A DNA stretch of 64,000 bases from Cyanophora paradoxa CCMP329 (taxonomy: Eukaryota; Plantae; Glaucophyta). Positions 4,587 through 60,053 of this stretch are shown here, piece after piece. Each line of letters starts with the position of its first letter. The stretch's first letter is position 1. The stretch is taken from NCBI GenBank assembly GCA_004431415.1, contig QPMI01000010.1, positions 434,001 through 498,000 of the forward strand, given 5' to 3'. Position numbers and translations under genes: made by a program. Below the pieces are notes generated by a model. It was not told the DNA's origin and searched no databases. It worked only from the letters and a program-made list of their open reading frames with translations.

Positions 4587-5344
4587 GGCTCTCCTTGCCG
4601 CTGGGCCGCCGCGCGCTGCAGGCCAGGCAGCTCAGGCGCTGGCGGTCCGCTGGCGATGATCGAGCAGGCGCTTCTGATGGTCGAGCAGACGTGCCCGGCC
4701 CGAGCGCATATGCGCTTGAGCTTCAACTCACAATTGCAACTGCTCTCTGCGACTCATGATCGGCTGCGCGTACAAGTGCTGCAGCGCAATCTTCAGCTGC
4801 GGATATCGATGAAGTGTTAAGCGTCAAGGGTCCCCGCAGTGCGGCTGGTCATGATGATGTGCTCAGTTGCAGAGCTAGCGCTAGCTTCTGCGCAGGCGTA
4901 TGCACGTCACACGCAGCACGAGCATGCTCAACGCGGCGTTACGTACTGTCTACACATGTGCAGCGACTCCCGGCGAGGATGTGCTCCCGCACTGCTGCGC
5001 TGACGGAGGCATGCTGCTCCGAGTGCACGCGTAACGTTAACGTGACGGCGACTGTGCTGATGAGACTCCAGTGACTCCAACTCCAACTCCGTCGACGAAC
5101 ATTCATGCCATTGTTGTCCCGCTGCGCTCGTTCGCACGTGACCAACTTGGCAAAGTTGGCACTCGCCGAGTCGAGCTCCGGATCCCCGGTCGAGCTGGCG
5201 CGGATCACGGAGCTGCGGTAGTGCGCAGCCTGGCATGCGCACTGCAGCTGGCTGGCTGCGCAATGCCGCAAAGGGCGGCGAGTGCTTACGCAACTCAGCT
5301 CAAGACATCCAAGCAGAACCTCGGATCCGTGTTTCATTTCAACC

Positions 5345-5416
5345 GTCGCTGTAGTATAGCGGTCAGTATACCTGCCTGTCACGCAGGTGACCCGGGTTCA
5401 ATTCCCGGCAGTGGCG
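5345..5416 (+). tRNA. trnD-GUC: tRNA-Asp (GUC)
   Basis: 72-nt cloverleaf: acceptor GTCGCTG/CAGTGGC, anticodon arm CCTGC-CT GTC AC-GCAGG, T-loop GTTCAATTC, followed by a TTTT Pol III terminator. Confidence 0.95.
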
Positions 5417-7459: not shown

Positions 7460-7531
7460 CGCCACTGCCGGGAATTGAACCCGGGTCACCTGCGTGACAG
7501 GCAGGTATACTGACCGCTATACTACAGCGAC
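7460..7531 (-). tRNA. trnD-GUC: tRNA-Asp (GUC), identical second copy
   Basis: Exact reverse complement of 5345-5416. Confidence 0.95.
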
Positions 7532-7816
7532 GGGTGAGAAATAGATGTCGTTTAAGGGTTCCGCTTTGAATTTTGGCACTTTCGTGGAGGACTCGGTCTA
7601 AGAGCCGGCGGGGCCGCAAGTCCGGAGACTAGGCTAGGAGCTCCTTGTGACCGGGTCCTGGAGTCGGGCGGCACAGCAGCAGCACGCGGCATCTATCGGA
7701 CAAGCCGCTGAGCGTTGTTGTCGACAGCGCCCGCTTGGTAGGACCACGCGCGGAGGCGCCGGCGGCCCGCGGGCGTGGCGTTGGCCGGCCGTGGGAGTGA
7801 CAGCAGCTCTGCGAAG

Positions 7817-36400: not shown

Positions 36401-39400
36401 ACGACGTGGACTCCATGAAATATTTCTACGTTCCACTTGGAGGGGCCAAAGGAAGGGGCCAGTATATGATATGTGATATCGAAGATGCTCCTACAATGAT
36501 GAGATATAACTGGTGTTTGGATGGGGATGGTTATGCTAAGACAAGTGTAAGGCGAGATGAAGGGAAATGGTTGGTATTGTATGCTCATCGATTGATAATG
36601 ACAAATGAACTGAAAGAAGGGTTGGTTGTCGACCATGTGAGCAGAGATAAATTGGACAACAGGAAGTGTAATCTGAGGGTATGCTATCCTTTTGAGAATA
36701 ATAGGAATAGGAGTAAAAGCAGCAATACAAGCAGTCAATATAAAGGTGTTTCTTTCAAGAAACGAGAGGGTAAATGGTGTGCTCAGATTACAATTAATGA
36801 CAAAAGGCTCTCTTTGGGGTATTACAAAAATGAAGCCTTAGCCGCTCATGCCTACAATCAGGCGGCAATTGAACACTATGGAGACTTTGCCGCTCTCAAT
36901 GAGATTAAGCCCGAGGCACAAAATACCGAATAGAATCAGCATTTAAAGAATAAAATCTTACCTATAGTGTAGAGGAACAAGAATTAAAATGGCATACCAT
37001 GCGGCATCTCAAATTGCCTATGTGACTCGTCGCCGTGCTCAAGATCCTGCTTTCCGTGAGAGAATGAAGCTTAATAGTCTGAGGAGCAGATACTACAAAG
37101 GTGACCCCCTTCCCTGTGTGAGGTACCTCTTTGATGAAAGGAGGTGCCTTGTTGGCAGACCAAGGACAGTGGTGTATTGAGGGGGTCGCGAAAAATTGAT
37201 TGTTTTATTTAATGATTCTATAAACTACTTAAGGACAAGGGTGTCAATAGAATCATCAAATTATTTTCTCACCCTATTATAGAATGGCTCCCTCATTCAG
37301 CTCAATCAACCCCAATGGCAACACCTTCATTCTCACTGAGCGCATCCACAGAGGTAACCTCAAATGGGTGGTGGAGAACTTTGATAATCTCCAGTTTCGC
37401 CCTGAAACTGACAAGACCCAAATGAGAGCCATCATCCAGAAATTACTTTCTATCGTCGATCATGAGGGCTACCACACCTGTAAATATAAGCAGGTGAAGC
37501 ACAACACTGGTAGGTACTTTGTGGATGGAAAAACCCCCAGCCTTCAAAGCATCTGTAGGGAAATTCGCCACACCATTTCCAAGGACTACTACTATGACAT
37601 TGACATTGTGAACTGCCACCCTGTCCTGCTTGTTCAGTATTGTGAGAAACATTCAATTGCCACTCCTCAGCTGAACAAATATGTTCAGAGCAGGGATGAA
37701 ATTCTTGATGATCTCTGTGAGGTCACCCAGAAATCCAAGGCTGATGTCAAGCGCAGCATTCTGGCAGTCATCAATGGTGGGCAAGGGGCTGACCTCTCTA
37801 GCCTACTTATCAATCACAAGTACTTCAGTGATCTCAAAGAGGAAATGGCCAAAGTCCATCAATTCATTGGTGGGATTGAGAAGCAGCGCTTCTATGCTAT
37901 TGCTAAGCGCAAGAAAGAAAGCAATGTACTTGGTTCCACCATGAATATGGTACTATGTGACCTTGAGAATCAGGTGTTAATGGCTGCTTGTGAGTACTTC
38001 AGTGCTCTTAAGCTCCATGTGGATGTCTTGGTCTTTGATGGATGTATGATCAGGAAAGACCCCAAAGTATTGAGTGCTTTGGAAGAGGTTAGTGATTATG
38101 TGGAGGGGAAAACTGGCTACAGGGTGACTTTTGTGGAAAAACCTATGACCAGTGGGTTTGATGTACCTGAATGTCAAGCTTCCCTTTCCAACATTGATTA
38201 CAAGACTGCTCCAATTCCTACCAACTGTGATTACATGGAGATCAAGCCCTACATGGATGCCAGACTTGCTCACATTATGAAGCCTGGGTTTGTCTTGTCT
38301 TGGAATGATCATACCAAGAAGTATGACACAACCAGCTTCAAAAGCTTGGCTGAGGATGTATACCCTCACATTCAGTACACAGAGTTTGACCTAATGTCTA
38401 TGAAGATGGAGCCTCATAACTTCATCAAAAAGTGGGCGAAAGATGAGACTGCCACAAGGTATGATTACTTGGACTTCCTCCCACCTCCTGTAAAATCTGC
38501 TTCCACCACTGCCAAGGTGTTTAATGCCTATGCTGGTATGAAAGGTGAGCTTATGGATGTGAGTGAAATGGATATTCCTCCTGATGTAACTGAGGAAGAT
38601 GTTAGCCCATTCCTTGACCACATGATGATTCTCAGTGGTGAAGATGCTTCTACATTCAATTACATACTGAAGTACTTTGCCCACATTATTCAGAGACCTG
38701 GGGAGTTGAATGGGATTTCAATCATCTTCAAGGGAAAGCAAGGAGTGGGGAAGAACATCATATTGGATTGGTTTCAAAATGAAATACTGGGTGGGGACTT
38801 GGCTTTCAGCACAGCCAACCCACTGAAGGACTTATTTGGAAACTTTGCCCACCAGCGAAAGCACAAACTACTTATCACTGTGAATGAGGCAAGTGGCAAA
38901 GACACCTTCACAAACAGTGATGCCCTCAAGGACATGATCACTGCTGAGAAAATTGTAATTGAGGCTAAGTATGTCAATTCTCATGAGGTGAGGAATTTCG
39001 CCAGGATCATATTTACTACCAACAACACCCTACCAATCAAAGTGGAGGCTGGAGATAGAAGGTTTGTGATTGTGGAGGTGAGTGACAAGAAAAAGGGTGA
39101 CATGAAATATTTCAAGGCACTGGGTAATTGGCTGAAGGAGCCAAGAAACCAGCACATGGTATTCCTCTACTTGAAAAACAAGGTGGATGTCACAGACGTG
39201 AACTGGTATGCTGACAGGCCAATGACCAACAGCTACTACCTTGCCCAACAAGCAAGTGTTCCTGTCACTGCCTTGTTCACCAAGGATTTGGTAGACACCC
39301 AAAAGATTACCAAGGATACACCAAGGACTGAGAACAGGCAACAGGTGTGGGAGTGGTTCCAGCAGTTCATTACAATTAATAAATTCAAGAATGAATTCAG

Positions 39401-42400
39401 CTCAAGGAAGTTCTACATTGAGATGGCTGGACTGGAATATGTGAGGCCTACCAAGTATTGTGGAAGGGAGTGTTATGTCTTCAAGTGGGATGAGATGATG
39501 GCTTACTTCAAGAGCTGTGGGCTGTTGGTGGAGTTTTTGGAAGAGGAGGAGGATTAGGGGGGGCTCATGATAGGTTTTTGGGGGGGGTTCAAGACGTCTG
39601 GGGGACCTTCTGGGGGACCTTCATTTTTTACTTTCTGGTTGTTTTATGACCAGAAATGGTAATAATGTATACACATAGGGGGGTTAGGGGACCTAGGGGG
39701 GGATATATAACTCCTATAGCCTCCAACTCTTTTTCATTTTTAAGCAACAAGCCAGAAATATATAGAGTTGTGAGAGAATACCCCCCTACCCACCCAACAA
39801 CCCCCTAATCCCCCCTAGCCCCCACCTTCCAGACTGAGAATGGTAACCTAAACAACAAGACGTCAGTTGGCAGAACCCCCCCCTAACTTCCCCTTGAGTC
39901 CCCTAACCCCCCCAAATCTACCCCACTTGCTTGTAGGCCACCAGCACTTAAGGACATCTTCATATAGCATGGTGAAGAGCCCAAGCCCCCAAGTGCCCAC
40001 CAAAAATTGATTCTTGACACCCCCAACCCCCCAAACAGTCTTACATAAGCCCACCAGTACCACCATGGACTCAGATAGCAGCTATGATGACATCCCCCTT
40101 GAGGACATGGTTGAACTGTGGGAGGCAGTCAGGCAGCAGTATTATGATGAGTATAGGAAGTCCCCCCAAGACATCAACCCCCAGACCTGTAAAGAATTGC
40201 GCAGATTGATGAAGGCATATGAGAACATCATATGTGATAACTATGGCATGGAGGGGTATGCCCTACTCCACAAAGCAAATTTTAGCTGGAGAAAGTCATG
40301 AAAATTGTAAGTACCCCATCTCAAAATCTCCGATTCATCCCTTGAAAATATCACCGTTGGATTCCTCGTAAAAAGTAGATATTTATAGACCCCAATATCA
40401 TAGCCCTAAGATGATCTGGTGACGAGCTACGAATATTTTCAGGTTCGCATATACCATATATATATACCATAATGATATATGTATATGATATATCATAATG
40501 TCACATGACATATATATATATCATAGCTTTTCGGACTCGCCGCGTCATGGCGATCACGGCGCTATAGGTTTTACCGAAACTTGTTTTTTTTTATATATAT
40601 AATATACATATATGAGCCGGCCTACCGTTGACCAGTATACGTAGTCACGCCAGCCAGCCTACCGTAGACCAGTAGGCACGCCAGCCAGCCTACCGTAGAC
40701 CAGTAGGCACGCCAGCCAGCCTACCGTAGACCAGTAGGCACGCCAGCCAGCCTACCGTAGACCAGTAGGCACGCCAGCCAGCCTACCGTAGACCAGTAGG
40801 CACGCCAGCCGGCCTACCGTAGACCAGTAGGCAAGCCCGCCAGCCTACCAGAGAGCGGTAGGCGCTTATTTCCTTATAGAACTCTATAAGAACATTTATA
40901 TTCCATTTAATTGGAGCCACCTAAGAAGCTCATATAATTAAATCGTATAAGACCATATAAGATTTTGGATAAGATTTATATAATCTATTACACTTCTATG
41001 TGAGCGACAATAAGGAGTCTAATAAGGATGGGTTAAATGTGGCGACTCTTGAAAGATTTCTTATAAGAACCTTATAGAGATTGCGCGGCGCAATCTAGAA
41101 GTTGCGCACAGTATGGGCTGCGCAAGCCTGAGATTGCTCCTTGTATGGCCGCGCAACGCTGAGATTGCTCCTTGTATGGCCGCGCAACGCTGAGATTGCT
41201 CCTTGTATGGCCGCGCAACGCTGAGATTGCGCAGCTATTTCCTTATAGAGCTCTATAAGAATGTTTCTAAAACTTTCAATTAGAGCCACTTAAGGAACTT
41301 CAAACGCGAATATCTCGGCACCAGATTGGCCGTTTTGAGCGCTCTTTTTTTTCCTGTGAAGCTCTCATCACGCTCTACGCAGAGCCGCCCCTTTCGCATT
41401 TTTATGCTGCCTAAAAGTAGATTATTATGACAACTCCCATCCATACTCGCCTTGTAGAGGTCTCCTTTGAACTCTCATATTTGGCGCTGACGTCTCCAAG
41501 CTCAGAACTGAGTAACTCCATACATCGCCTCTCTATAGAACTGTACAACCTTGGTCATCGAATAGCCCCCCTGTCTCCACATATCAAAGCAGCTTTACAA
41601 AAAATATCAAACGACCTTCTAATGCTTGGAAACGAGATAAATACCCTCCCTGATGGCAGATAATGTGCTCAATGTAGACGGTTTCCTTGGTACTCATCCC
41701 AAGCGCTGCTTACAGCCTGAGCAAATTGCTCCCCTGTCACCTCTTCAATACTCTCCAAGCTTACCCTTTGCCCCTCAGTTGACCCTGTCCTCAGCACCAC
41801 ATCATAGGGAGACCCACTCCTGGATCCACTTGGGGAGGAAGATCCAATGCTGACGTCAATAGTAGTATCACAACAGCTACATTTATAATTGCTGGTCACA
41901 TGTATATGAAACATATCCAGCAATTGTTGGAGCCATTGCCACATCTTACAAGTAACAGGACAAAATAACTCAGTTGCTGCTCTCAGTGGTTAAAAAGTAT
42001 TTAGCCGGCCTCCCCATTGGCCTCACCACTTCTTTTTGTGCCCTTCGGCGATAATATGATGCCAAGGCTTGTTGTTTCTTAACCTCTCTATATGCTGGGT
42101 CTTCCCTGTATCTTTTTTGGTTTGCTAAAGCGCTCTTAATATAACTCTCACTTACAGGACTATCAACGGTGAACTCAACCAGACTGATGGTATCATCCAT
42201 TTATAATAGAAAAAACGTTTATTTTTTCTCAAAGCCAAACCCGTCGTTTATACACTGTGGGGGCTACGCCTTTGTCCACCTCTGCCTTTGTAGCACCTGG
42301 CTCAATAGTCCCCTTTTGGGTCTTTGTTTTCATTTCATCAACAGCTTGCTCATCGATTTGGGTCTCTTTCTTGGCAATAAACTGTTTATCTGGAATCCCA

Positions 42401-45400
42401 GTTATCCCCATTTTGAACACCTCCTTTCTAAGCATCTCCTTGAGTTTGGACCTCTCTCTCTTCTCAGTTACATACTGCTCCAAAGCACTTGACTTGGCTT
42501 CCAGATCTTTAAGCTTGGCAGTCATTTCGTCCCATTGAGCCTTGGGAACTCTATGAATATTCTGGGTGGGAGCAGTCTTGTATGTGACTTCACCCGCCAT
42601 AGACTGGATAACCTTGTCGGATTCTTTACTGAGACCCTCACCTTTGCGAGTGAGTGATAGATCTTGGAGCCCAAGACCTTTATCATCAGCAGCACCTATA
42701 ATTCGCCTGGCACCCTCACCCACAGCCTTCATTTTAGAAGCTTCAGGGGAGATGTTGAGCTGATCACTGGTGGACGTCTGTGGGGCTTTGTCATCAAAAG
42801 ATTCCTCATAGGCGGCATTAAGGGGATCCTCTTGCTGTTGTGAGGGCTTAACCTCATTCATTCCATTGAATTTAAGCGGGTCTGTGTTAATGGAGCCATT
42901 GTTACCACCACCTGAATACCCAACAGCCCCAGCAGGGATGCCTATTTTCCGTTTGGGGGGCATTGTGTCTTTATTAAAGTGAGAGATATTTTTATAGACC
43001 GCGTTTATATCGCATTAACTTACTACTATGAACTTGGCTTTTCACTTCTTTGCGCCCCTCTTCTTTCTCTGGTGGTTTAAGCTCATCTTCTTTCTTCTTT
43101 GGCTTCCTGTGGAACCGTGGAAATGGGAAATCTTTGACCAAATCCGCTTTATCTACGAAATATTTCACAGAATAATCTGCGGATGACCAAATTAGGAACT
43201 GGTAGGAATGTACGTACTCTTCAAACATTTTATAGAAAACATCTTTGTCCCGCATTATATTGTATTCTTCCTCAATGGCTTCAAGCTCCTTTCTATTGGC
43301 AGCGCTGAGGAACATAGCATAATCTGAGTTGACGCGAATGGTCGATGAGACTTTCCTTAGCTTTTGTGTGATACAGATAATAGATATTTTCGAATGTCTA
43401 CCACGACTGTAAAGACTTCCGATTATTTTATCTCGGGTCAAATCTACTATTTCGTTGTCAATAAGGTCGTCCAAAACAACACATAATTGGTTAACAGGTT
43501 CCCCTTTTTCTATTTTCTCTTGCCTTTCATCCAGCAATTTAGCAATGTAAGGGGCGTCCCATTTCCCCAATTGTAATGTGGCCACCTTATCCCAGAAATG
43601 ATTAAAGCTTGTTCCACTCACCACCAAAACGACATCAATCTTTTTGGCATCATGAAGCTGCTTGAGCCAGTACTTTACAGCCTCTGATTTACCAGTAGCA
43701 GATTTGCCAATTGCCAAAACGCGGAAAGGGGGATTTATCATCTCACCAGCATTAAATTCGTCCAAGTCGCCCATGCTTCCTTCTATAAAGAACCAGATAA
43801 AAATAATACGATGTGACTGAATATGGTTTATAGATTGATTCGCCTCAAGCCGTCCTTGTCCACAATAATGAAACTATGCATGAGAGCGCGAACATTGACA
43901 TCAATTGCCTTGTCAGTGGGCATGTAGAGAGTGAGGAATGAAGATGAAGAATTGGTCAGGTCAACATAGCCAGACTGGGCAACATTGCGAATAGCCTTCT
44001 CACCATCAAGACAGAATGGCAGCCCTGAAAGAACATAGCGATCAGCAACCTTATCCATGTTAGAGCATTTGAAGACATCAGCAATCAGCTCAGCACCCTT
44101 GAGCAGTGGAATGGGCTCAGTGGCATAGAGACGTTGACCATTAATTTCCACAGTGAAAGTAATATCTTTGGAGTTGGAGTAGGTCTTAAGTACACTGTGG
44201 GAACCATTAGCTTTGTCAACATTAGCGTTATCACGAACTGAAACAAGCAGAGCATAAACGAGACCTGATATTTGGGAGAGGTTAACTCGATTGGGTTGGG
44301 CAAGACCCTTGGCTTTCATATCACTGACATCCACAAATCCAATATCCAGAGCAGGGATAGCCATGCCAGTTGTCTTTACCTTCTCAATAACAGTAGCGAA
44401 AAGCTCATCAGACACATTAACAGCATACATATAAAGGCGAGGAGAAGTAATTTTAATTTCAACGTTTGGCGCACCAAGATTGAAAGTGGTGATGTTTTGG
44501 CCAACATGTGCCAGCACAGATTCAGCAGGTGCGACGCCAAGCCCATCATCCTTGTCCCCATCAATGGCTGTGTCCCCAGCCTTAGGAAGAGTACGACCAC
44601 CATAAGAAGTCTCAACATAACCCTTCCCTACATCCTTGAACCAAACAGTTACTACCATTTCACCAGACAGAGCACCAAGAGGTAGGTAGTGGTTTAGCCA
44701 AGGCACAGGAATTTCAACAAAGAATGAGCCACCAAGTCGGTTGGTTCCATGGGCGGGGATGCCGTGAAGCATGCCCATTGATCGCTTCTTTTTGGCAAGC
44801 TGATCCTCACTATAATAGACAAGAGGGAAATGAGCAAGGAAATCAGAAGGGATATGGTAGGTGTATGACCCATAGGTAATTTCAAGTCGCTGAACCAAAG
44901 CACCAACTGGGCGAGTATACCCATTTCGAACAAGATCAGCATCACCAAAAGTGATAGCTGGAAGGTCGAAGGCAAGTTCGAGTTTGCCACAGAAATTGTA
45001 GCGAGGGAGTTTGAATGAAATGCGATTTCCAACACTATTTTCAAAAGTATTGCTCGGGTTCACAACAACAAGAACGGGCTTCGACTTGGATTCAAGACCA
45101 AGCATTAGGGAGTTATCCAGAAAGAAGGCCTTGGCCTCCTCTGGGGTTGTTAGGGCTTCTTTCAACGAAAGGCGCTGGAGGGTCGACGTAATATCCATGA
45201 TTTTCTCTTTTATTATACTGTAACATAAAAAAATTACGAATGAACCTTGTGTTTACCCAAAACTCGCAATGATTGGATATGTTGGATGACTTTGTGACAT
45301 CCGCATCTTAAAGTATTCATAGACAGGGTCGCCTGCTGGCTCCTCCCCATATCGAATTTCAAATGTGAGGTGGACAGGTTGACCCTCAAAATCGATTGGT

Positions 45401-48400
45401 TCGTTTATAGCATTTACTATATCCACAGAGAATGTAGACAAACCCATTTTTTTGTTATAGTACTTGTAAAGTGGGTGAGATTCTGTTGAATTGTAAACCA
45501 CATGCTCACCGTAGTCCTTGTCAGGAACTACTATTTTATGGAAGTAACCAGTCAGGAGACCATCCCCACACTGAACCAGATCACCCAACTCTTTTACTCT
45601 GACAAATAAAACACTGTCCCTGGTCTTTTCAGGCTCAAACGAAGATATAATACCATTCACCCGTTCACCAGTAAAGATGCCATCAGTAAGAGCATTATAA
45701 ACCTGTGATTGGATTGGGGAATTTCCATATCTTCCGGGATCAAGACCAAGCAATCGGGCAGCGCTCAGTAACTTTTGGATCGTTTTCTGGTTTGGATTTC
45801 CAGCAACAGAGAAGGCTAGATAGAAAGGTTTCTCTGAGTGGAATATAATTCGTTTTAGTGACTCATCCCATTTACAGCGAATAGATGGTTCCGGCTCTCT
45901 ATCATCGAATTTCGCATTAATTACATTTACCAATTGCTGGTGGCTTTGAATGGGTTTTTTGCGGCTTATTATTAATTGCTTCCAAGGTTCAAAGCCGGCC
46001 GCTGGTCGAGTAGTTGGAATGCCATCAATGCCAGCACCATCGAATTCTTCACTCCAAAAAATGCTGAATGAATTATCAATTGTAATATCCCCTGGTTGCG
46101 TTTCACCACTCACCATAGGGATACTATTATAAAATTCGGCCGAGACCAGCCTGACAGCCCTCACATTCTCATATATGTTTGGAAGTCGAGCTATAAAGCT
46201 TGAAGTAGGACCGTCACCAGAGATTGTATTAAAAGAGCTCACCTCAATGTAGTCCACGGGCATTCTCCTTTTATCTATATTCATATATTAAAATGAACCG
46301 GCTTGTCAATGTTGATAGCAGGGATCGCAGCCAAGGTGAAACCGAAAACTCTTACAGGGTTGCCCTCACAACACCAGTAGAGAGACCTCGAGAGTGTAGG
46401 GTTATTTACGCAGAAATTCCAAACAGCATTTACAATAGTGTGGGAACAGATCATTTAATAGTGGAATTCACCTATCAGGATAGTTCTGTCACTGAAACAG
46501 TAACTTACAACATTTCCCCCCTGCCAACCGGTTATATCAATCAGGGACATTTTGGGGTCACCCAACCATACAACTATGGATTGAACTATGTGTTCTATGA
46601 GGAAACTATAGCAGGAAAAACAGTTGCTTTCGAATTCAAATTATTTTACAATCCAACCACTTATAAAGTGGAGTTCTACAGTAACAGATTTTTCCGTATA
46701 AGAGCAAGCAATAAGCGTATTGGTAAGCTTCTGGGGTTAAGCTCAACTGAGTTCCAGTCTTCATTTATGGATGACAATTCGCCCTCTCAATCTCCATATC
46801 GCCCTGAGAATTTTCTAAAGTATGATGGCAAACCTATCACACTCAATCACCCCTTGTGGGGAACTACCTTTTCGGGATCCAGACTTTCATCCACACCTCT
46901 TAGATATGTTTATTACAGCAATAAGATGGCAGACATGAACGCTGAGCAGTACCTTTATTTACATGTCAAAGAACTTGCTCCCTTTGCCAGCAGACATAAT
47001 ATAGTCCCAAAATCACAGCCACAAAACCAAGGCGCCATACTGAGACTCCAATTAAGCAAGGATATAGGAGGCTATGTTTACTATAATGGTGAACATGGGG
47101 AGTTTATTCGAATTAATGACCGACATCTGGTGGTGAGAGAACTAACAGTTGAGTTCAAAGACTACTTTGGTGACATCATTGACATGAATGGAATTGACAA
47201 TTCTTTTCAGCTCGAGTTTATCGAATAAACGCACCTGTAAAATCGACTCTCATTGTGGGAGCATTCACATAGACAAGGGGATAAATGCGAACATATTTGA
47301 TTCTCAAAGAGAACCCTACGTAGAAAGCATCCTTGATGGTGAGAGGGTAACCATTTAATAAAGCTATATCGCCGGAATTATTAGCATTGTTTATATTCTC
47401 ACAAACAAATGTTTTGTTCTGCCCTTCTGCTCGAATAAAAGACCAGTTGATCCCATTAGTTGATGTAGCCACATTGAAAGTCTTTATAAAAGCATTGGTG
47501 TCCCCTGACCCATAGGCAACCACTGAAGAGAGTTCAAAAGTGTATGGGAAAGCAACTTGAAGGTACTCAGTGGGGGTCTCCCATATCTGCTCTGGAGCAA
47601 ATGCCCCAGCTTCCCAGCCAAATGATGAAGGTCGAGCCATGTGGGGCTCTTTACCTATCACAGAGGAGGAGGCAGTAAAAGCATCATCAGCAAGTTTGTA
47701 CCAATTAGCATCCAAAGGTGGTGACAGGGTGAGAGTGGAAGAGATATAAGCTTTTGATGGGTTCTTTAATTCATAGTTTGCTACCAGCAAATCGCAAAGC
47801 TTATTAATCATGGTGTTGTTTGCTGCTATGTATGTCTCAGTGAACGAAAGCATGTCGGGGATTTTAGAGGTATCATCAAGGGACTTGACTATGTGATTTG
47901 GAAGAGGAACAGATAGCCTATAGTACCTCCCATAATCCTGATCGTAGTTGTAAGGCAGCAACTCCTCCATCTTGTCAAGAGCTGACAGCTCACTTGCTGC
48001 CATGAGCATGTTAATCAATGGGCTTCCATCTGTTGAGGCAATCCATGAGAGAATGCCCAACTGTTCACAGTCTCATAACCATAGCCGAAATAATCAGACT
48101 CTAAATATGGGTCTACCTCACCACAAGAGATGCTTATAACTATAATGTCATCATCATCACTGTAAATCTTCCTCGCATGGCTATAGCCACACACACTTGG
48201 GTTATTGTTTCCTGAAATAGCACCATCAATAAGGCAAGCAGTTACCCCTCGATTAAAATCAACTATACTCACAGGAGAAAAGTAGGTGGGAGCAGCAGAG
48301 GTAGCCCTTGCTGCTATTTTACAGGGCAGAAAGTTATAGTTGTTATCATTTGTGATAAATATAGGTTTCATGTACTGAGTATCAAACGAAGTAATCACAA

Positions 48401-57400: not shown

Positions 57401-60053
57401 ATGGTTTAAGGGTTGGTGGAATTATTGGAGCGCCTTTATTAGTAAATGATCAACCCAATCCAGATGATGTGAATACAAGAATCAGGACATATGTCCCGGG
57501 AATGAATGAGCCTTACATTATCAAAATCAACACAATCATTATCAACCTCACCGTCGGCAACGCCGACTGCAAGAACTCGTGCGCGACAATTTTGCATTCC
57601 TGATTTAATGTGAATTTCACACATAGGGATACCCCTGATCCAAGCCTGTAGAAATCACTATAGATATACTGAGACGTTGCCTGCTGATATTTACGCATTA
57701 TGTAGAAGAACAGATGGAGCAAGACCCCGTATTACTGTCCAAGTAGTCCCAGTAGATAATTTCGGACTTGCTTTCCATTCACTGCCACTTCTTGACACAC
57801 AAGATGACCAATATATTATAAGAGCTACCCAGCAAGGGGCTTACACAGTGATTATGTATGCTGAAAGGAATGATGAAATTGCCAGAGGAAATAGATTTGG
57901 TCAATATCTAACCACAAATTTATACAATCCCATTGGAGGAAGTGATCCTTTGCCTTAAATCTCCAGCAATCGTATTGTTTTTTCTATTCTATTGGTAATC
58001 AAAATGCTTGCCAAAGGTTACCATGTGATGCTTGATTTCCAATTCAGCCAACCAATTAGAGACCATGTGGAGCTCTCTAAATGGCTCATGAATGTCAGTG
58101 AAGACATCATCAAGAAATATGGAATACAGGTTGTCCACAAACATGCTGAGATTTTTGATGGCACTAAATCACCCCCTGGATTCGCTCAGGTATTATTATT
58201 GGATGAAAGCCATTGCTCTGCTCATTGCTACAGTGATCAAGGCATGTTGGCAATAGATATATTCAGCTGTGGAAAACAGGCAGAAAGGAATACAAGTTTA
58301 ATTGCTTTTGAGCTGGAGGAGGAGATAAACAAATATGCTATTGGTTTTGGGGCAGTGATCAAAAAGAGATTACACCACGAGAAGAGGAGGTTTGAGGTTT
58401 AAGAGAGGGTGTTGAGGGTGTTGAGAGTGTTGAGGGTTATATGTAAAAATTCCCGTGACAGAGAATTTTCCTAAGAAAGTTTACAAACAACCCTCAACAC
58501 CCTCAACACCCTCAACACCCCCTGCTGGTGCCGAAAAGACATATTTAATACCCTAAGACCTAAAATAGATGCTTACTACCCTAGTGCTTAAAACGCGCAC
58601 ACATAGGGATACCCCTGATCCAAGCCTGTAGGCCGAAGGCCGGAGGGCTTGGATCAGGGGTATCCCTATGTGTGAAATTCACATTAAATCAGGAATGCAA
58701 AATTGTCGCGCACGAGTTCTTGCAGTCGGCGTTGCCGACGGTGATCATCGAGTCGTCGAACTTGTCCTTGTCGGAGCGGCCGTTGTTGAGCGTGTCAAGG
58801 AGGCTCTTGCGCTCCTTGTTCGGGTTGAACGAGTGCTTCCAATCTTTGCACTGCGCATGCCAAATTAAATTTGAAGACTTCAGCCTCTCACGGTTCGGCG
58901 GTCTCATTTTAGTTTATTTAAAAACGAGCATGAGTGTTCTAAATTAAATTTGATTCGACCGTAATAGTGATCATCATCATCATCGGATGTAATAAAATAT
59001 TCTATCAAGACGCATACCTTGCTCTCGGTGTCGAAGCTCGTGGAGACGGTGGTGGACTGCTCGGTCACGTTCGACTGCACGGCCACCGAAGACTGCGGGC
59101 CGCTGACGCCGGCCGACATCGCCGAGTCCGGCGTGGCGGCAGCGGCGGTCGCGTTCGAGTTCGAGTTCGACGCCGGAGCGGCCGCGGGGGTCGGCGTCGG
59201 CGCCGCGGCGGCCGCGGCCGCGGGGCTCGGCGTGGCGCCTGCTGACGTCGACGATGTCGAATTCGAAGTCGAGGGCGGCGCCGAGCTCGAGGGAGAGGGC
59301 GTCGGCGAAGGCGTCGAGGCACTGGCTGCTGCGGCCTGCGGAGTCGGAGTCGCAGCCGCGGCTTCCGGGACAGCGCTCGGGCTCGGAGATGCGCTCGGGC
59401 TGGGGCTCGGCGAGGCGCTCGGGCTGGGGCTCGGAGATGCGCTGGGGCTTGGGCTGGGGGTGGGACTGGGCGAAGGCGTAGACGTCGGCCCGGCGGGCAG
59501 AATGAAATTGCTCGTATTCTTCCCCGTGTTAGCGCCGTTTGATGCAATAGTGGTGCCAGTTACATCCCGGTAGGCCGTCGACACGCAGCTGATGTTGAAT
59601 TCCTGCGTGTAAGGCCCAGATATGTTCTGCGCATGCGTCCCAAAATAACGTTAGAATAGCCAGTCCTGTATACGTACGTATACATCGTGTACGTAGGGAT
59701 CTTCTCACCACAGTTGTGGTCGTGCTTCCGATTTGGATACACGAACCCGTCTGAGCCACGACGACGAGGCCGGAGTCGTATGGCCCTGCAGGATCTTTGA
59801 CCCCCGTCGGGCTGGAAACGCTGCAGACAGTCTTCACGCTGCAGGCTTTGGATTCCGGGTTGGTGTTGTCAGCCCCCTGCCACGAGACCGTGAGAACGAT
59901 GGCGCTGTATGTCAGGGCCGTCGCCGTCTGGCTCACTGCGTACGCCAAGCGATGATGATCATGAGCTCGCGAATTCGGAGCTCGCATAATATATAAGCTT
60001 GAGGCCTTGAGAAAGAGTGTGCGGGCGGTGGCCAACGCACCTGTCGTGCCCAT
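30454..60053 (-). CDS. Host Ser/Pro/Thr/Ala-rich putative cell-surface (possibly GPI-anchored) protein; one intron (31312-58713) carries the viral element
   Basis: Exons at approx. 60053-60041, 59935-59710, 59620-59018, 58851-58714, 31311-31161, 31087-30893 and 30783-30454. The checked joins are in frame (...ADCKNS|RKAARRLLATTG..., GLLD|VEGALY). (SP)n stalk, RRLL motif, hydrophobic C-terminus GAMNILGPVAGLLASLLVARRA*. Confidence 0.75.
31376..31450. repeat. Left terminal inverted repeat, itself a hairpin (28-bp perfect stem, 19-nt asymmetric loop)
   Basis: ACACATAGGGATACCCCTGATCCAAGCC - CTCCGGCCTTCGGCCTACA - GGCTTGGATCAGGGGTATCCCTATGTGT. Confidence 0.97.
31581..31780. repeat. Left subterminal stem-loop (23-bp stem, 31581-31603/31637-31659) running into 9-10-bp tandem repeats (CCGTTCACC, CCTTTACAC, AATCTTAAC)
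   Basis: Read directly from the sequence. Confidence 0.85.
31871..33157 (-). CDS. Retroviral-type (rve, DDE) integrase of the Polinton/Maverick kind
   Basis: FAIDLVFF (D), IQSDAGSEF (D), SQGRIEAFNRTIK (E), YNNTIHSATGMKP; consistent with the 6-bp TSD. Confidence 0.95.
   Translation of the reverse strand: MSSKITRRQTEYDVSILPIPIPQEERGGRIQKKSDLKALVPADIPTAIAVPHLDPLARTFYDTKVGFKGLASLAKELPDVPRKTIRRFYDAQEINQINKPLPSAKKTAYIPIRQPLDTFAIDLVFFPSYSKQNQGYNTFLTAVENTTRLGFIIPMRGKTAESTLNAFKELEQQVPRPIVKIQSDAGSEFLNKVFKDHLETQMIEHQVSQVGDHNSQGRIEAFNRTIKKLINSYCIANNTVKFFDKLQDFAYNYNNTIHSATGMKPAETTEVHVPLILGKENEKFMKSIEYLKDYPAGSHVRTKIEKSPFAKQGNNWSREIFTIEGVEGFKFKLRDISGKLIDRLYAHYELQKVETVEFLEAPSINVIEEAKKEARTERLLAREGIERAPNVPDKPLLEDRAGKKKKQGRELERLRVAGTERLAGEQRQ
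33169..36264 (-). CDS. polB: Protein-primed family B DNA polymerase (~1031 aa, probable start MPRPSHY at 36264) with C2H2 finger and endonuclease-VII-like Zn insert
   Basis: Motif A YLDANNLYGYA, motif B KIMNNSLFGK, motif C FTDTDS, RPKCYS, KLAGV; N-terminal NKDNRCFEYSIL; FCKTCSNHFKTEEKLQSH; CYIC...RDHDHQTG...ACRKCN. Confidence 0.95.
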   Translation of the reverse strand: MPRPSHYQIKELQDKILGNLAFLLANHSISESEYESYISQTNKKLKGLQALNRELLGKIDALDETDRLGHIQVEQTTTTQVRGEDYTALINEHRALNNKYIDFTIRAQHQILTTQEFIDTYSEELHTRLQDAINSQMSIKTRFTFVCRFSKANNSRDFITKHIYSTYAIMTRSRILTKETAKLAKECQSQINVTDSYRLDSIQALRVIVLSFKPISGGAFIPLPEWLKNKRAIVNVNNKDNRCFEYSILSYIHKDEVNSHKRNETSQYRRWFKKELNFEGIEFPVKADADTIDLFENLNPAISVNIYDPSNSTEEINLLHNSSSRNRKHQVDLLLITDENGNSHYTTIFSMSRVLAKNDKQRLHFCKTCSNHFKTEEKLQSHIQSKRCVDWKTSAGETPKQPTFIEFGLKHLSKTVFLPVIAYCYFDYETDISGMFKIKSISLTALHNNRVVLTKTHSNIFELLSTLDSTAPELFKALFTNIPMSLTKEQKRTHYLAKTCYICEGTFSQDNYKVRDHDHQTGDFVGSACRKCNLHRRTSNLTKIPIVTNDLSLSGTQIFKAVALNPEKRVEVLAKSFDNYMSITWGCFKFIDIKNFIDYGVQNVEGLMEKFQLFRQKSHKTFGMDAAHYVSSPGLSWDSMLSITKPKIELLSNLDMYNMVEGMIRGGLSIMNHKYAKKERDSHIIYLDANNLYGYALSQKLPLSNFQWHPEPSNYDLSSAEGAILEVDIHYPQHLHQLHKELPLVIKRAEDGLQAACEDICNYVVSKPLLQFMVAQGLKVTKIHRVLTFTQAAFMKPYVESNAQNRKAAPSKPEKDFFKIMNNSLFGKTIEKVRGRSNVKIATNEKQFMKYARSPLLKAETRLSDSAVAFEMLQKNVKLDKPIAIGAVVLDLAKLRLFDYYYNTIKRKWPDCKLLFTDTDSLCLQINSKTIAKDLQDIDTHPTELGKFKDEFEGRTIIEYAGVRPKCYSIKTDDEEIKKLAGVCKETIQTDLSFQDYKDHVLHQKPKQIEMTVQKKLENETFNVKMSKIAF
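36361..36933 (+). CDS. HNH-AP2 homing endonuclease
   Basis: AHRLIM...VVDHVSRDKLDNRKCNLR...ENNRN (HNH) followed by SQYKGVSF...KWCAQI...LGYY...AAHAYNQAAIEHYGDFAALN (AP2). Confidence 0.93.
   Translation: METFDQDLVETKFDDVDSMKYFYVPLGGAKGRGQYMICDIEDAPTMMRYNWCLDGDGYAKTSVRRDEGKWLVLYAHRLIMTNELKEGLVVDHVSRDKLDNRKCNLRVCYPFENNRNRSKSSNTSSQYKGVSFKKREGKWCAQITINDKRLSLGYYKNEALAAHAYNQAAIEHYGDFAALNEIKPEAQNTE
36989..37180 (+). CDS. Small basic protein (63 aa), probable DNA binder; paralog of 41970-42200
   Basis: ATG in A-rich context; DPAFRE...SRYY...GRPR resembles DPAYRE...ASYY...GRPAK. Confidence 0.6.
   Translation: MAYHAASQIAYVTRRRAQDPAFRERMKLNSLRSRYYKGDPLPCVRYLFDERRCLVGRPRTVVY
37192..37199 (+). promoter_or_regulatory. 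AAAATTGA octamer (mimivirus-type early promoter motif) upstream of the primase-helicase
   Basis: Exact motif in the intergenic region, ~85 bp before ATG 37284. Confidence 0.55.
37284..39557 (+). CDS. Primase-helicase: PolA-like primase-polymerase (TVpol) fused to D5-like superfamily-3 helicase
   Basis: N-terminal YDIDIVNCHP / KRSILAVINGG / VLVFDGCMI (PolA motifs A/B/C-like); C-terminal Walker A GKQGVGKN, Walker B LITVNEA, motif C IIFTTNN, DRRF. Confidence 0.88.
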   Translation: MAPSFSSINPNGNTFILTERIHRGNLKWVVENFDNLQFRPETDKTQMRAIIQKLLSIVDHEGYHTCKYKQVKHNTGRYFVDGKTPSLQSICREIRHTISKDYYYDIDIVNCHPVLLVQYCEKHSIATPQLNKYVQSRDEILDDLCEVTQKSKADVKRSILAVINGGQGADLSSLLINHKYFSDLKEEMAKVHQFIGGIEKQRFYAIAKRKKESNVLGSTMNMVLCDLENQVLMAACEYFSALKLHVDVLVFDGCMIRKDPKVLSALEEVSDYVEGKTGYRVTFVEKPMTSGFDVPECQASLSNIDYKTAPIPTNCDYMEIKPYMDARLAHIMKPGFVLSWNDHTKKYDTTSFKSLAEDVYPHIQYTEFDLMSMKMEPHNFIKKWAKDETATRYDYLDFLPPPVKSASTTAKVFNAYAGMKGELMDVSEMDIPPDVTEEDVSPFLDHMMILSGEDASTFNYILKYFAHIIQRPGELNGISIIFKGKQGVGKNIILDWFQNEILGGDLAFSTANPLKDLFGNFAHQRKHKLLITVNEASGKDTFTNSDALKDMITAEKIVIEAKYVNSHEVRNFARIIFTTNNTLPIKVEAGDRRFVIVEVSDKKKGDMKYFKALGNWLKEPRNQHMVFLYLKNKVDVTDVNWYADRPMTNSYYLAQQASVPVTALFTKDLVDTQKITKDTPRTENRQQVWEWFQQFITINKFKNEFSSRKFYIEMAGLEYVRPTKYCGRECYVFKWDEMMAYFKSCGLLVEFLEEEED
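40003..40010 (+). promoter_or_regulatory. Second AAAATTGA octamer, upstream of small ORF 40065-40301
   Basis: Exact motif ~55 bp before an ATG in CACCATGG context. Confidence 0.5.
40065..40301 (+). CDS. Hypothetical viral protein (78 aa)
   Basis: ATG in good context, codon style like the upstream helicase, helical acidic/aromatic sequence MDSDSSYDDIPLEDMVELWEAV... Confidence 0.6.
   Translation: MDSDSSYDDIPLEDMVELWEAVRQQYYDEYRKSPQDINPQTCKELRRLMKAYENIICDNYGMEGYALLHKANFSWRKS
40649..40865. repeat. Tandem array A: 7 x 31 bp (GCCAGCCAGCCTACCGTAGACCAGTAGGCAC), each unit with a GCCTAC/GTAGGC stem
   Basis: Five perfect units, two diverged units, plus a partial unit at ~40616. Confidence 0.95.
41128..41230. 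repeat. Tandem array B: 3.3 x 31 bp (CTGAGATTGCTCCTTGTATGGCCGCGCAACG)
   Basis: Three perfect units and a partial unit. Confidence 0.95.
41427..41663 (+). CDS. Hypothetical helical protein (78 aa)
   Basis: ATG ORF with an internal helical repeat (SFELSYL / SIELYNL / SNDLLML); abuts the convergent ORF. Confidence 0.45.
   Translation: MTTPIHTRLVEVSFELSYLALTSPSSELSNSIHRLSIELYNLGHRIAPLSPHIKAALQKISNDLLMLGNEINTLPDGR
41669..41944 (-). CDS. Hypothetical viral protein (91 aa) with CSCC motif
   Basis: ATG ORF at the end of the minus-strand structural block, short AT-rich spacer upstream. Confidence 0.55.
   Translation of the reverse strand: MWQWLQQLLDMFHIHVTSNYKCSCCDTTIDVSIGSSSPSGSRSGSPYDVVLRTGSTEGQRVSLESIEEVTGEQFAQAVSSAWDEYQGNRLH
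41970..42200 (-). CDS. Small basic protein (76 aa) with GRP (AT-hook-like) motif
   Basis: Lys/Arg-rich; similar to 36989-37180. Confidence 0.65.
   Translation of the reverse strand: MDDTISLVEFTVDSPVSESYIKSALANQKRYREDPAYREVKKQQALASYYRRRAQKEVVRPMGRPAKYFLTTESSN
42229..42963 (-). CDS. Hypothetical protein (244 aa), coiled-coil, N-terminal PPKRK (NLS-like); possible virion core protein
   Basis: Long ATG ORF co-oriented directly downstream of the ATPase. Confidence 0.75.
   Translation of the reverse strand: MPPKRKIGIPAGAVGYSGGGNNGSINTDPLKFNGMNEVKPSQQQEDPLNAAYEESFDDKAPQTSTSDQLNISPEASKMKAVGEGARRIIGAADDKGLGLQDLSLTRKGEGLSKESDKVIQSMAGEVTYKTAPTQNIHRVPKAQWDEMTAKLKDLEAKSSALEQYVTEKRERSKLKEMLRKEVFKMGITGIPDKQFIAKKETQIDEQAVDEMKTKTQKGTIEPGATKAEVDKGVAPTVYKRRVWL
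42992..43774 (-). CDS. A32-like (FtsK/HerA) genome packaging ATPase
   Basis: PFRVLAIGKSATGKS (Walker A), LCVVLDDL (Walker B), RGRHSKISIICITQ, IRVNSDY. Confidence 0.95.
   Translation of the reverse strand: MGDLDEFNAGEMINPPFRVLAIGKSATGKSEAVKYWLKQLHDAKKIDVVLVVSGTSFNHFWDKVATLQLGKWDAPYIAKLLDERQEKIEKGEPVNQLCVVLDDLIDNEIVDLTRDKIIGSLYSRGRHSKISIICITQKLRKVSSTIRVNSDYAMFLSAANRKELEAIEEEYNIMRDKDVFYKMFEEYVHSYQFLIWSSADYSVKYFVDKADLVKDFPFPRFHRKPKKKEDELKPPEKEEGRKEVKSQVHSSKLMRYKRGL
43828..45198 (-). CDS. Double jelly-roll major capsid protein (456 aa)
   Basis: Size, beta-rich pattern, motifs GNRISFKLPR...LAFDLPA, LVQRLEITYG, IPVPW...LPLGAL, VEINGQRL, SGYVDL; lies between ATPase and penton. Confidence 0.85.
   Translation of the reverse strand: MDITSTLQRLSLKEALTTPEEAKAFFLDNSLMLGLESKSKPVLVVVNPSNTFENSVGNRISFKLPRYNFCGKLELAFDLPAITFGDADLVRNGYTRPVGALVQRLEITYGSYTYHIPSDFLAHFPLVYYSEDQLAKKKRSMGMLHGIPAHGTNRLGGSFFVEIPVPWLNHYLPLGALSGEMVVTVWFKDVGKGYVETSYGGRTLPKAGDTAIDGDKDDGLGVAPAESVLAHVGQNITTFNLGAPNVEIKITSPRLYMYAVNVSDELFATVIEKVKTTGMAIPALDIGFVDVSDMKAKGLAQPNRVNLSQISGLVYALLVSVRDNANVDKANGSHSVLKTYSNSKDITFTVEINGQRLYATEPIPLLKGAELIADVFKCSNMDKVADRYVLSGLPFCLDGEKAIRNVAQSGYVDLTNSSSSFLTLYMPTDKAIDVNVRALMHSFIIVDKDGLRRINL
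45253..46284 (-). CDS. Minor capsid protein (penton) 1
   Basis: IEVSS...SSFIARLPNIYENVRAVRLVSAEFYNS N-terminus; LFVRVKEL; LSTFSVDIVNAINEPIDFEG..VHLTFEI C-terminus. Confidence 0.82.
   Translation of the reverse strand: MNIDKRRMPVDYIEVSSFNTISGDGPTSSFIARLPNIYENVRAVRLVSAEFYNSIPMVSGETQPGDITIDNSFSIFWSEEFDGAGIDGIPTTRPAAGFEPWKQLIISRKKPIQSHQQLVNVINAKFDDREPEPSIRCKWDESLKRIIFHSEKPFYLAFSVAGNPNQKTIQKLLSAARLLGLDPGRYGNSPIQSQVYNALTDGIFTGERVNGIISSFEPEKTRDSVLFVRVKELGDLVQCGDGLLTGYFHKIVVPDKDYGEHVVYNSTESHPLYKYYNKKMGLSTFSVDIVNAINEPIDFEGQPVHLTFEIRYGEEPAGDPVYEYFKMRMSQSHPTYPIIASFG
46293..47228 (+). CDS. Minor capsid protein (penton) 2
   Basis: VNVDSRDR...SYRVAL...VIYAEIPNS N-terminus; YLYLHVKEL; LTVEFKDYFGDIIDMNGIDNSFQLEF C-terminus. 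Confidence 0.85.
   Translation: MNRLVNVDSRDRSQGETENSYRVALTTPVERPRECRVIYAEIPNSIYNSVGTDHLIVEFTYQDSSVTETVTYNISPLPTGYINQGHFGVTQPYNYGLNYVFYEETIAGKTVAFEFKLFYNPTTYKVEFYSNRFFRIRASNKRIGKLLGLSSTEFQSSFMDDNSPSQSPYRPENFLKYDGKPITLNHPLWGTTFSGSRLSSTPLRYVYYSNKMADMNAEQYLYLHVKELAPFASRHNIVPKSQPQNQGAILRLQLSKDIGGYVYYNGEHGEFIRINDRHLVVRELTVEFKDYFGDIIDMNGIDNSFQLEFIE
47218..48773 (-). CDS. Patatin-like phospholipase fused to F5/8 type C (discoidin) domain, split by a 1-nt frameshift near 48056-48058 (~518 aa if repaired)
   Basis: LSGGGARG, GTSTG, ARATSAAPTYF, IDGA. The patatin C-terminal part (WGILSW...PLINMLM, YYRL, LDDTS) continues in the second frame, then AFTASS...EYLQVAF...STNGINW...KYVRIYP...MRVDFTG. Confidence 0.85.
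48817..56141 (+). CDS. Giant fibre/adhesin-like protein (ORFs 48817-52395 + 52392-56141; ~2441 aa if one gene) with four LamG/ConA-like modules, HxH repeats, 13/26-aa shaft repeats and a phage-fibre-type C-terminal domain
   Basis: Four YLP(L/K/I)(T/S)GGTIT motifs, each preceding a module that ends like E...(F/Y)(N/T)RAL...E....R.YL..KYG. The second module straddles the ORF junction. C-terminus F..KPPV...IHWTAYG. Confidence 0.75.
53118..53740 (+). repeat. Coding tandem repeats: ~6 x 39 bp (PLTSSNVVQEWIA) then ~5 x 78 bp (PKADTETVNSQIALLTSSNTVQGWLI)
   Basis: Visible at both DNA and protein level. Confidence 0.9.
56181..57026 (+). CDS. Putative fibre-associated structural protein (281 aa), paralog A
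   Basis: Intact ORF; shares GLESTE, RVKELRADKNSGVVKTTQLLVTNANF and GYRNDE with the next gene. Confidence 0.75.
   Translation: MGEYNRVQLPVYALGSPAIHFRQHEVSDEIRGLESTERANSGNAFDKNSMIRVKELRADKNSGVVKTTQLLVTNANFQSANGQPDAYGVDIKAFEFDNTRAAAVIRSGGAIIGGGCRVSGMLGSSAAFNDFPDTLPEHADNPQRIRMFLPCGDSPYAFGIIRANVNTQNATQPQGIAGPWKLANQLLPKAIYSMCRSQNGGLEGYTFFVQAVGHGGRGWITRNPATQPNSFDFWASEVGGYDILIFGYRNDEAAWAVANCINPDSQVSNFYNEPFPNDPIP
57046..57958 (+). pseudogene. Paralog B, interrupted by a ~104-bp insertion at 57548-57651
   Basis: The 5' ORF matches the N-half of paralog A. After the insertion, LPADIYALCR...TVQVV...YAERNDE...DPLP matches the C-half of paralog A in a shifted frame. Confidence 0.85.
57548..57651 (-). repeat. 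Inverted copy of the right virus-host junction (71 bp host flank 58674-58744 + 28-bp terminal arm + TGTAG)
   Basis: 57548-57646 is the exact reverse complement of 58646-58744. Confidence 0.95.
58004..58402 (+). CDS. speD: S-adenosylmethionine decarboxylase proenzyme family (short prokaryotic-type, pyruvoyl-dependent), 132 aa
   Basis: GYHVMLDF, F...PPGFAQVLLLDESHCSAHCY (E|SH self-cleavage site), AIDIFSCG. Confidence 0.88.
   Translation: MLAKGYHVMLDFQFSQPIRDHVELSKWLMNVSEDIIKKYGIQVVHKHAEIFDGTKSPPGFAQVLLLDESHCSAHCYSDQGMLAIDIFSCGKQAERNTSLIAFELEEEINKYAIGFGAVIKKRLHHEKRRFEV
58407..58520. repeat. Right subterminal stem-loop (41-bp stem built from GAGGGTGTT 9-mers, 3 mismatches)
   Basis: 58407-58447 is complementary to 58480-58520; the loop matches the left subterminal loop. 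Confidence 0.85.
58599..58673. repeat. Right terminal inverted repeat/hairpin
   Basis: Exact reverse complement of 31376-31450. Imperfect TIR similarity continues inward (31451-~31525 vs ~58524-58598), then patchily to ~31660/58407. Confidence 0.97.

Follow-up and report, generated by a model that had tools for sequence, protein, structure and literature searches.

Template-switch mutations and microhomology-mediated fork-stalling/template-switching or break-induced replication form one group of known systems, and flip/flop terminal hairpins are familiar from parvoviruses and poxviruses, the poxvirus telomeres of this type being cited among the references of PMC11296320. According to the sections of PMC7954356 used here, such mutations exchange a stretch of DNA for the reverse complement of sequence close by, perfect inverted repeats are made, and the 1-4-3-2 order is common. 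U-turn restarts at short inverted repeats are described for stalled or restarted forks in the corresponding part of PMC4417113. Among integrating viruses, the endogenous virophages as well as polinton-like viruses (PLVs) of Halocafeteria seosinensis carry terminal palindromes beside their target duplications, and hairpin-primed replication is proposed for them in the part of the source drawn on (10.64898/2026.07.28.741278). The EMALEs of Cafeteria burkhardae measure 5.5-21.5 kb, with terminal inverted repeats (TIRs) of 0.2-2.3 kb and target duplications of mostly 3-5 bp, as given in the portion of PMC8547959 considered. The locus compared with these systems lies in a stretch of 64,000 nucleotides from the glaucophyte Cyanophora paradoxa CCMP329 (assembly GCA_004431415.1, contig QPMI01000010.1, positions 434,001 to 498,000 of the forward strand), called the window, whose own numbering is used throughout. 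The window holds an integrated virus-like element, and within one gene of this element, here called paralog B, the junction between the element's right end and the host stands a second time, inverted. The most economical origin of this patch is a template switch at the terminal palindrome.

The features on which the argument turns are listed below; identities of paralog B refer to P0002, an intact homologue of 274 amino acids (aa) found in a full HMMER search.

31370 to 31375, no strand: target-site duplication GAAATT, left copy, read directly
31376 to 58673, no strand: integrated virus-like element (polinton-like/virophage-like), delimited by GC composition, TIRs and genes
31376 to 31450, no strand: left terminal palindrome of 75 nt, with a 28-nt arm, the 19-nt loop CTCCGGCCTTCGGCCTACA and a second 28-nt arm (arms 100% complementary)
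56181 to 57026, plus strand: paralog A, 281 aa, intact
57046 to 57547, plus strand: N-terminal part of paralog B, 61% identical to P0002
57548 to 57651, plus strand: the patch, 71 nt of host flank reversed, the 28-nt arm and TGTAG
57652 to 57958, plus strand: C-terminal part of paralog B, out of frame with the N-terminal part, 47% identical to P0002
58599 to 58673, no strand: right terminal palindrome of 75 nt, with a 28-nt arm, the 19-nt loop TGTAGGCCGAAGGCCGGAG and a second 28-nt arm
58646 to 58744, plus strand: source of the patch, running from the outer arm of the right palindrome over the target duplication and 34 nt of intron into the exon of a minus-strand host gene, of which the final 31 nt are included
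58674 to 58679, no strand: target-site duplication GAAATT, right copy, read directly

The patch itself can be divided as follows.

57548 to 57578: last 31 nt of the minus-strand host exon
57579 to 57612: 34 nt of intron, beginning GTGCGCG
57613 to 57618: target duplication reversed, AATTTC
57619 to 57646: 28-nt arm
57647 to 57651: TGTAG, the opening letters of the loop as they are read from the other arm

Positions 57548-57646 are the exact reverse complement of 58646-58744 (99 nt, 100%), and the two arms of this repeat are 999 nt apart. A plain inversion predicts CTCCG(GCCTT) behind the arm, whereas the patch continues TGTAG(AAATC), and the left arm of the right hairpin continues TGTAG(GCCGA). 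The initial annotation had described 71 bp of host flank plus the 28-bp arm copied in reverse, with TGTAG in place of CTCCG, and this description held over all 99 nt. The five letters equal 58627-58631, which follow the inner arm, and with the arm they lie in a tract (57618-57651) that is the reverse complement of 31418-31451 (34 nt, 100%). The tract copied from the right junction stops precisely where the arm meets the loop, the place expected for a switch guided by the palindrome. At the two borders, T57548 and G57651 could equally be native gene letters, and the joints (marked by a slash) read …ATCAACC/TCACCG… on the left and …GCCTGTAG/AAATC… on the right. A chance origin of the additional arm is excluded, since the 28-nt arm occurs five times in the window (four times in the terminal palindromes and once in the patch) and 0 occurrences are expected from shuffles.

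Public sequencing runs were used in the form of Logan contigs, not raw reads, and contig depth is no copy number in such data. The window stretch matched 20 rows of public runs (15 named studies and 4 rows without a named study), with about 0.5-0.58 of the sampled words; contigs were compared in five runs (X1, X2, X6, X12 and X17), including one pass at a likeness of at least 97% in X1, X6, X17 and X2. The intron part, the target duplication and the arm form a locus-specific contig of 99 nt in these runs, in agreement with the earlier proposal that the copy arose at or after integration at this site. As the patch contains host DNA, it can be dated as post-integration.

The consequences for paralog B can be read against sibling copies of the element. 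The frame of paralog B enters the patch and stops at 57601-57603, leaving a product of 185 aa with a foreign tail of 18 aa. A sibling contig of 349 nt, about 92% alike and present at depths of 184-513 in X1, X6, X17 and X12, joins 57548 to 57651 through 35 different letters in all four runs, and a translation of these letters by hand stays in frame (…N L Q T A V L D V L E P L G N H…). Contigs of X17 whose flanks match the window with 0-1 differing letters also continue into native sequence from both sides; their native stretch likewise comes to 35 nt if the loose ends overlap by their common 7 letters, and it ends …CCTTTGG before G57651. The letters TGTA are not native, as siblings read TTGG at that place, and only the final G of TGTAG might belong to the gene, so that a native origin of TGTAG by microhomology, which the initial annotation had left to be checked, is not borne out. 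P0002 aligns with both pieces of paralog B and leaves 13 of its residues uncovered at the break. Since paralog B is uninterrupted in the siblings, which have 35 in-frame bases where the window has 102, the event replaced sequence and broke the frame: 35 nt went out and 102 nt came in, a net gain of 67 nt with a frameshift. Paralog B is a pseudogene in this copy of the element. The earlier statement that the copy truncates and disables the gene thus stands for the disabling, with siblings and P0002 uninterrupted, but not for mere truncation, since about 35 native bases were replaced.

With somewhat better than even confidence, the patch is interpreted as a post-integration template switch that included an extra strand switch inside the palindrome arms. 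The order of the steps is a reconstruction, built on the observed replacement, the identity with the right junction, the differing native sequence and the single letters shared at the joints. A DNA polymerase would have left gene B at 57547/57548 during break repair or stalled replication, and synthesis would have restarted on the plus strand at 58744 and run leftwards over the host flank and the outer arm to 58646, giving 57548-57646. The new 3' end, now carrying the arm sequence, could then have re-annealed to the partner arm of the opposite strand and so made a U-turn somewhere in the 28/29-bp stem of the palindrome. Four to five loop letters (TGTA and G) would next have been copied in the opposite sense, before the end returned to gene B at 57651/57652 with 35 native bases skipped.

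Several properties of the locus fit this sequence of steps. The joint overlaps amount to only 1 nt each (T57548 and G57651), a pattern of end joining or template switching and not of homologous recombination or integrase. With a predicted fold of -40.3 kcal/mol (z -12), the right terminal palindrome is a plausible obstacle for a fork and a plausible switch site. The event would also be recent, because the patch is identical to its source while the 149-nt TIRs are only 95% alike. Other ways of reaching the observed junction were rejected. An 8-of-10 match between native AGCCTTTGGG and the arm/loop sequence AGCCTGTAGG was considered as a guiding microhomology, and the actual joint lies one base out of its register. 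Snap-back synthesis on the resected strand itself was also traced on paper, as was hairpin-capped breakage with subsequent replication, and they predict CTCCG or CGGAG after the arm, or loss of the element.

A number of points weigh against a template switch at the palindrome or limit the support for the patch. Three switches are required, two of them on a single shared base, and the strand switch rests on the four unambiguous letters TGTA, which would be found by chance about once in 256 cases. At 1.0-1.1 kb the template lies farther off than the short-range model has it, with its 'tens to hundreds of nucleotides' in the wording of the section of PMC7954356 used. The support for the patch comes from run contigs and is indirect only. 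The locus specificity of the copied junction is limited by a 38-nt exon/donor part of the patch that is common to host paralogs, whose contigs split from the locus at 57584/57585, equivalent to 58707/58708. The 31-mer at 57617-57647, introduced below as a marker of the patch, could derive from a sibling in which one base next to the arm is different, or mark the flop end in another sibling whose flank also ends TTC. Finally, the copied tract has its outer limit (58744) 1-3 nt away from where the locus-specific k=31 contig (99-101 nt) ends, a coincidence that has no evident biological reason and would suit an error of assembly.

Such an error, either a chimeric molecule in the library or a polishing or gap-filling mistake at a multi-copy, hypervariable spot of gene B, is the most serious competitor, although it is considered unlikely. 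The site is indeed a variable 35-nt stretch among many near-identical siblings, and exact look-up of the chimeric 185-aa open reading frame (ORF), of paralog A and of the AdoMet-decarboxylase-like ORF further right placed none of these proteins in a collection of 15 billion. No listed contig in the five runs bridges 57547/57548 or 57651/57652, but the missing bridges are uninformative in either direction: rare variants are lost from contigs, and other single-copy variants of the window are also absent at many places. At a likeness of at least 97%, the bins 57527-57537 and 57659-57680 were uncovered in X1, X6 and X2, and the bins beside the left joint in X17 are fully explained by the contigs that continue into native sequence. 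On the other side, joints that share only 1 nt each offer no de Bruijn path without reads carrying them. Within the window, the 31-mer 57617-57647 (T, C, arm, T) occurs only once and tells the patch apart from the two usual settings of the arm; X1, X2 and X6 each have it as a separate contig, with depths of 120, 70 and 60. In the same three runs, the 99-nt junction contig reached about twice the depth of single-locus contigs (208.2 vs 106.2 in X1, 115.9 vs 58.5 and 67.7 in X2, 96.5 vs 47.5 in X6), although in X17 the ratio was only 80.1 vs 62.1. Moreover, a multi-copy element of 27 kb with no N in its sequence implies an assembly from long reads, in which consensus errors take the form of small indels. 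The run contigs therefore favour, indirectly, a patch that exists in the DNA beyond the assembly.

If the patch is real, its loop letters could also have been copied from a template that was already reversed. In this rather improbable alternative, the right palindrome of this copy or of a sister chromatid was transiently loop-inverted by cruciform isomerisation, arm-arm recombination or hairpin-transfer replication, and the patch is a plain reverse-complement copy of one template ending 4-5 nt into the loop. Only two joints and a single contiguous template of 103-104 nt would then be needed, the palindrome is very stable as a hairpin, and the odd 31-mer of X1, X2 and X6 could mark a flop end of another sibling. 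Hairpin-primed replication, moreover, is what has been proposed for endogenous virophages and PLVs, in the part of 10.64898/2026.07.28.741278 referred to above. However, the two termini of the element share one orientation: the asymmetric loop, TGTAGGCCGAAGGCCGGAG on the right, appears on the left as the reverse complement, the same relative to the element. The depth of the contig leading from the arm to TGTAG in X2 (1312.5) is accounted for by the internal-side 31-mer (1200) and the odd 31-mer (70), and that in X6 (1008.7) by 950 and 60, so that 91-94% of this depth enters from the internal side; the contig is not broken by further entries from the flank side. Making a flop isomer in the chromosome itself would also require the same strand switch. 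No HUH-type nickase or telomere resolvase was found by Pfam among the 16 scanned ORFs of at least 130 aa.

Hairpin-transfer replication would lead one to expect both loop orientations among sibling ends, and these ends appear fixed in one orientation, like ordinary TIRs, a provisional statement based on contigs. A standing flip/flop population is therefore disfavoured. The initial annotation had offered a template switch at an extruded cruciform or, in its place, the record of a flip/flop terminus; the former is retained, and the latter is not supported, in view of the common loop orientation and of depths that internal-side entry and the one odd 31-mer explain. It is rather improbable that the four loop letters are the fossil of a flop isomer, in a family whose palindromes would undergo extrusion and isomerisation in the chromosome or be replicated by hairpin transfer. 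Should this be true all the same, they would be the first sequence-level trace for the hairpin-primed replication model of endogenous virophages and PLVs.

Slightly less probable again is the capture of a fragment of about 100 nt that was released from the right junction, possibly by a junction resolvase cutting the cruciform in one of its two modes, and end-joined into a double-strand break in gene B. One-base overlaps and a loss of 35 nt fit end joining, and, as a matter of geometry, cutting strands 1 and 3 of a cruciform would yield the observed succession of reversed flank, arm and TGTAG. The source junction is intact in the same molecule, though, so the fragment would have had to come from a sister copy; no sign of such fragments was seen here, and more independent steps are needed than for templated synthesis. 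Templated synthesis, a transient flop template and fragment capture are inseparable by sequence alone.

Filler bases are common at end-joined junctions, and a plain inverted copy that ended at the arm might have received four untemplated bases that read TGTA by accident. With only four letters at stake this is conceivable, yet it seems very improbable, given the chance of about 1 in 256 and a copy that ends precisely at the boundary of arm and loop. An event made by the integrase, with the right end inserted into the element itself by auto-integration or one-ended strand transfer, is scarcely credible: in its favour stand the rve-like integrase gene of the element and an internal arm with the orientation of a left end, but the 71 nt of host DNA outside the arm already contradict it, no target duplication flanks the internal site, where 35 nt were lost instead, and the loop letters lie on the wrong side of the arm for a free end.

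Patch and source form a new perfect inverted repeat of 99 bp that encloses 999 bp and that could promote inversion or further instability. Oriented like a left end, the internal arm brackets 1,055 bp together with the true right end. A third integrase-type end, as it had been called in the initial annotation, is present as sequence, but no function follows: the rve-type enzymes considered here use free 3' ends for joining, and this arm lies within duplex DNA alongside copied host flank.

The element measures 27,298 bp and has a GC content of 0.42, compared with 0.62-0.68 in the host DNA. Its TIR comprises 149 nt that are 95% alike between the ends, and its target duplication is 6 bp of the GAATT type. 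As single-stranded DNA, the left palindrome folds at -37.8 kcal/mol (z -11.6) and the right one at -40.3 kcal/mol (z -12.0), a value that 0 of 200 shuffles equalled. The arm sequence had 0 matches in viral_contigs and metagenome_contigs. Each end additionally has a subterminal inverted repeat of 9-nt repeat arrays (31573-31667 and 58404-58523), the units of which differ between the left end (CCCGTTCAC and CCTTTACAC arrays, 31645-31763) and the right end (GGGTGTTGA/CCCTCAACA); these arrays fall outside the conserved 149-nt TIR. A further sibling family in X1, X6 and X12 has the same arm start with a different loop/arm variant, seen as the loose end AGAGGGCGAAGCCCGAGGGCTTGGATCTGG behind 58626. 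The stem-loop design of a 4-nt bubble, a short GC stem and a GAA tip is preserved in it despite the changed letters.

The element lies in an intron of a GC-rich host gene on the minus strand, 34 nt behind a GTGCGCG donor, with intron limits that are inferred; a host reading frame lies beside the right end (58689-58913, minus strand). The host exon adjoining the element (58707-58835, minus strand) is multi-copy in the runs: two additional contigs match 57548-57585 except for one letter and then diverge into different introns, and the summed depth in X1 is about 900-1000 over 58712-58835 and about 50 further right. The host gene with the element is one member of a gene family. Elsewhere in the host DNA, an inverted repeat of 133 nt, 99% complementary and with a spacing of 1933 nt (5339-5471 and 7405-7537), looks like the ends of a TIR transposon of about 2.2 kb.

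The gene content, as far as it was assigned, comprises the following genes.

31871 to 33157, minus strand: rve-like integrase (Pfam rve at 26.2 bits, under the 32.6 cut-off; PHROG transposase families down to 1.2e-12)
33169 to 36738, minus strand: pPolB-like ORF of 1189 aa with an Endonuclease VII insert (residues 643-692), a feature-based lead
37284 to 39557: primase/helicase-like gene (DUF5906/VapE-type helicase), by Pfam
42992 to 43774, minus strand: A32-type ATPase (Pfam Pox_A32, 8.1e-11)
43828 to 45198, minus strand: capsid-like ORF, a feature-based lead only (0.98, Capsid_N in 12-18% of cluster members)
48015 to 48773: patatin-like phospholipase (8.1e-20)
57992 to 58402, plus strand: AdoMet-decarboxylase-like gene (Pfam AdoMet_dc, 1.1e-11)

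Taken as predictions, these genes point to a polinton-like or virophage-like integrating virus. The assignment of the 1189-aa ORF is a lead only, from feature matches (0.97) to clusters with DNA_pol_B_2 in 27-70% of their members; no polymerase match was found in Pfam or PDB. An HNH-AP2 ORF, homing-endonuclease-like (36310-36933), overlaps the upstream part of this polymerase-like ORF on the opposite strand. The AdoMet-decarboxylase-like gene falls between the patch and the right end, within the 999-nt spacer of the new inverted repeat, and together with the patatin-like phospholipase it is unusual cargo for such elements. A stretch of the element that lacks long ORFs holds 31-nt tandem repeats in two arrays of 7 and 3 copies (40610-40888 and 41116-41230). 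The ORF at 52368-56141, one of two fibre-like ORFs of about 1200 aa, contains in-frame repeats of 39 nt and 78 nt (53118-53737), which encode a recurring unit of 13 residues (…PLTSSNVVQEWIA…), and has a weak concanavalin-like lectin match.

Paralogs A and B belong to a small family with four relatives among 1.84 billion representatives, two of them with a C1q domain. In these two relatives, the N-terminal domain of the family is fused to a C1q head, and a role as virion fibre or adhesin is plausible by inference from this arrangement, which is how the earlier designation of paralog B as a probable structural gene should be read. A word-based homologue search with paralog A gave nothing, the N-terminal part of paralog B had no confirmed relatives in metagenome_contigs or viral_contigs, and PHROGs held no matches for the capsid-module ORFs or for paralogs A and B.

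If the patch is real, it represents a clean natural multi-step template switch, the switch point of which is pinned by a viral terminal palindrome. Hairpin ends of integrated elements would then act as strand-switch sites in the host chromosome, able to inactivate genes of the element itself. The apparently fixed loop orientation of the sibling ends, in turn, argues against parvovirus-like hairpin transfer in this element family.

Compared with the systems introduced at the beginning, the element has the TIRs (149 nt, 95%) and a target duplication within the 5-6 bp of the polinton, PLV and virophage type. It differs from the EMALEs, in the figures taken from PMC8547959, by its length of 27.3 kb, its TIR of 149 nt and its target duplication of 6 bp. 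By description only, and within the part of 10.64898/2026.07.28.741278 used, it resembles the elements of H. seosinensis, which encode rve where this element has an rve-like gene, and which likewise have hairpin-forming TIR tips abutting the target duplication; in contrast, their palindromes go preferentially with replication genes other than pPolB, whereas a pPolB-like ORF, as a lead only, is found here. With the flip/flop ends of parvoviruses and poxviruses it shares a terminal palindrome that can fold into a hairpin and has an asymmetric loop, as well as a single sequence setting with the loop reversed. However, the sibling ends appear to have a single orientation in the contigs, and the odd copy carries host DNA and is thus no viral terminus. 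Retroviral-type auto-integration is unlike the event in that 71 nt of host flank stand outside the arm and 35 nt were lost at the target.

The closest likeness is to template-switch mutations as formulated in the four-point model (PMC7954356, the sections used): the patch is a reverse-complement replacement, it creates a new perfect inverted repeat, it follows the 1-4-3-2 order, and its joints share 0-1 nt. It departs from that model because it is not colinear with a single template, the strand changing inside the 28/29-bp palindrome stem, which calls for an extra switch or a flop template. The template also lies 999-1197 nt away, unlike the tens to hundreds of nt given for the short-range model in the same sections of PMC7954356. 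As in the U-turn restarts of PMC4417113, in the part considered, the nascent 3' arm would have re-annealed to the opposite-strand arm, and the spacer would have been read in the opposite sense; here, however, the U-turn spans only 4-5 nt before the next switch, and no palindromic chromosome results. The event is a known kind of mutation in an unusual and interesting setting.

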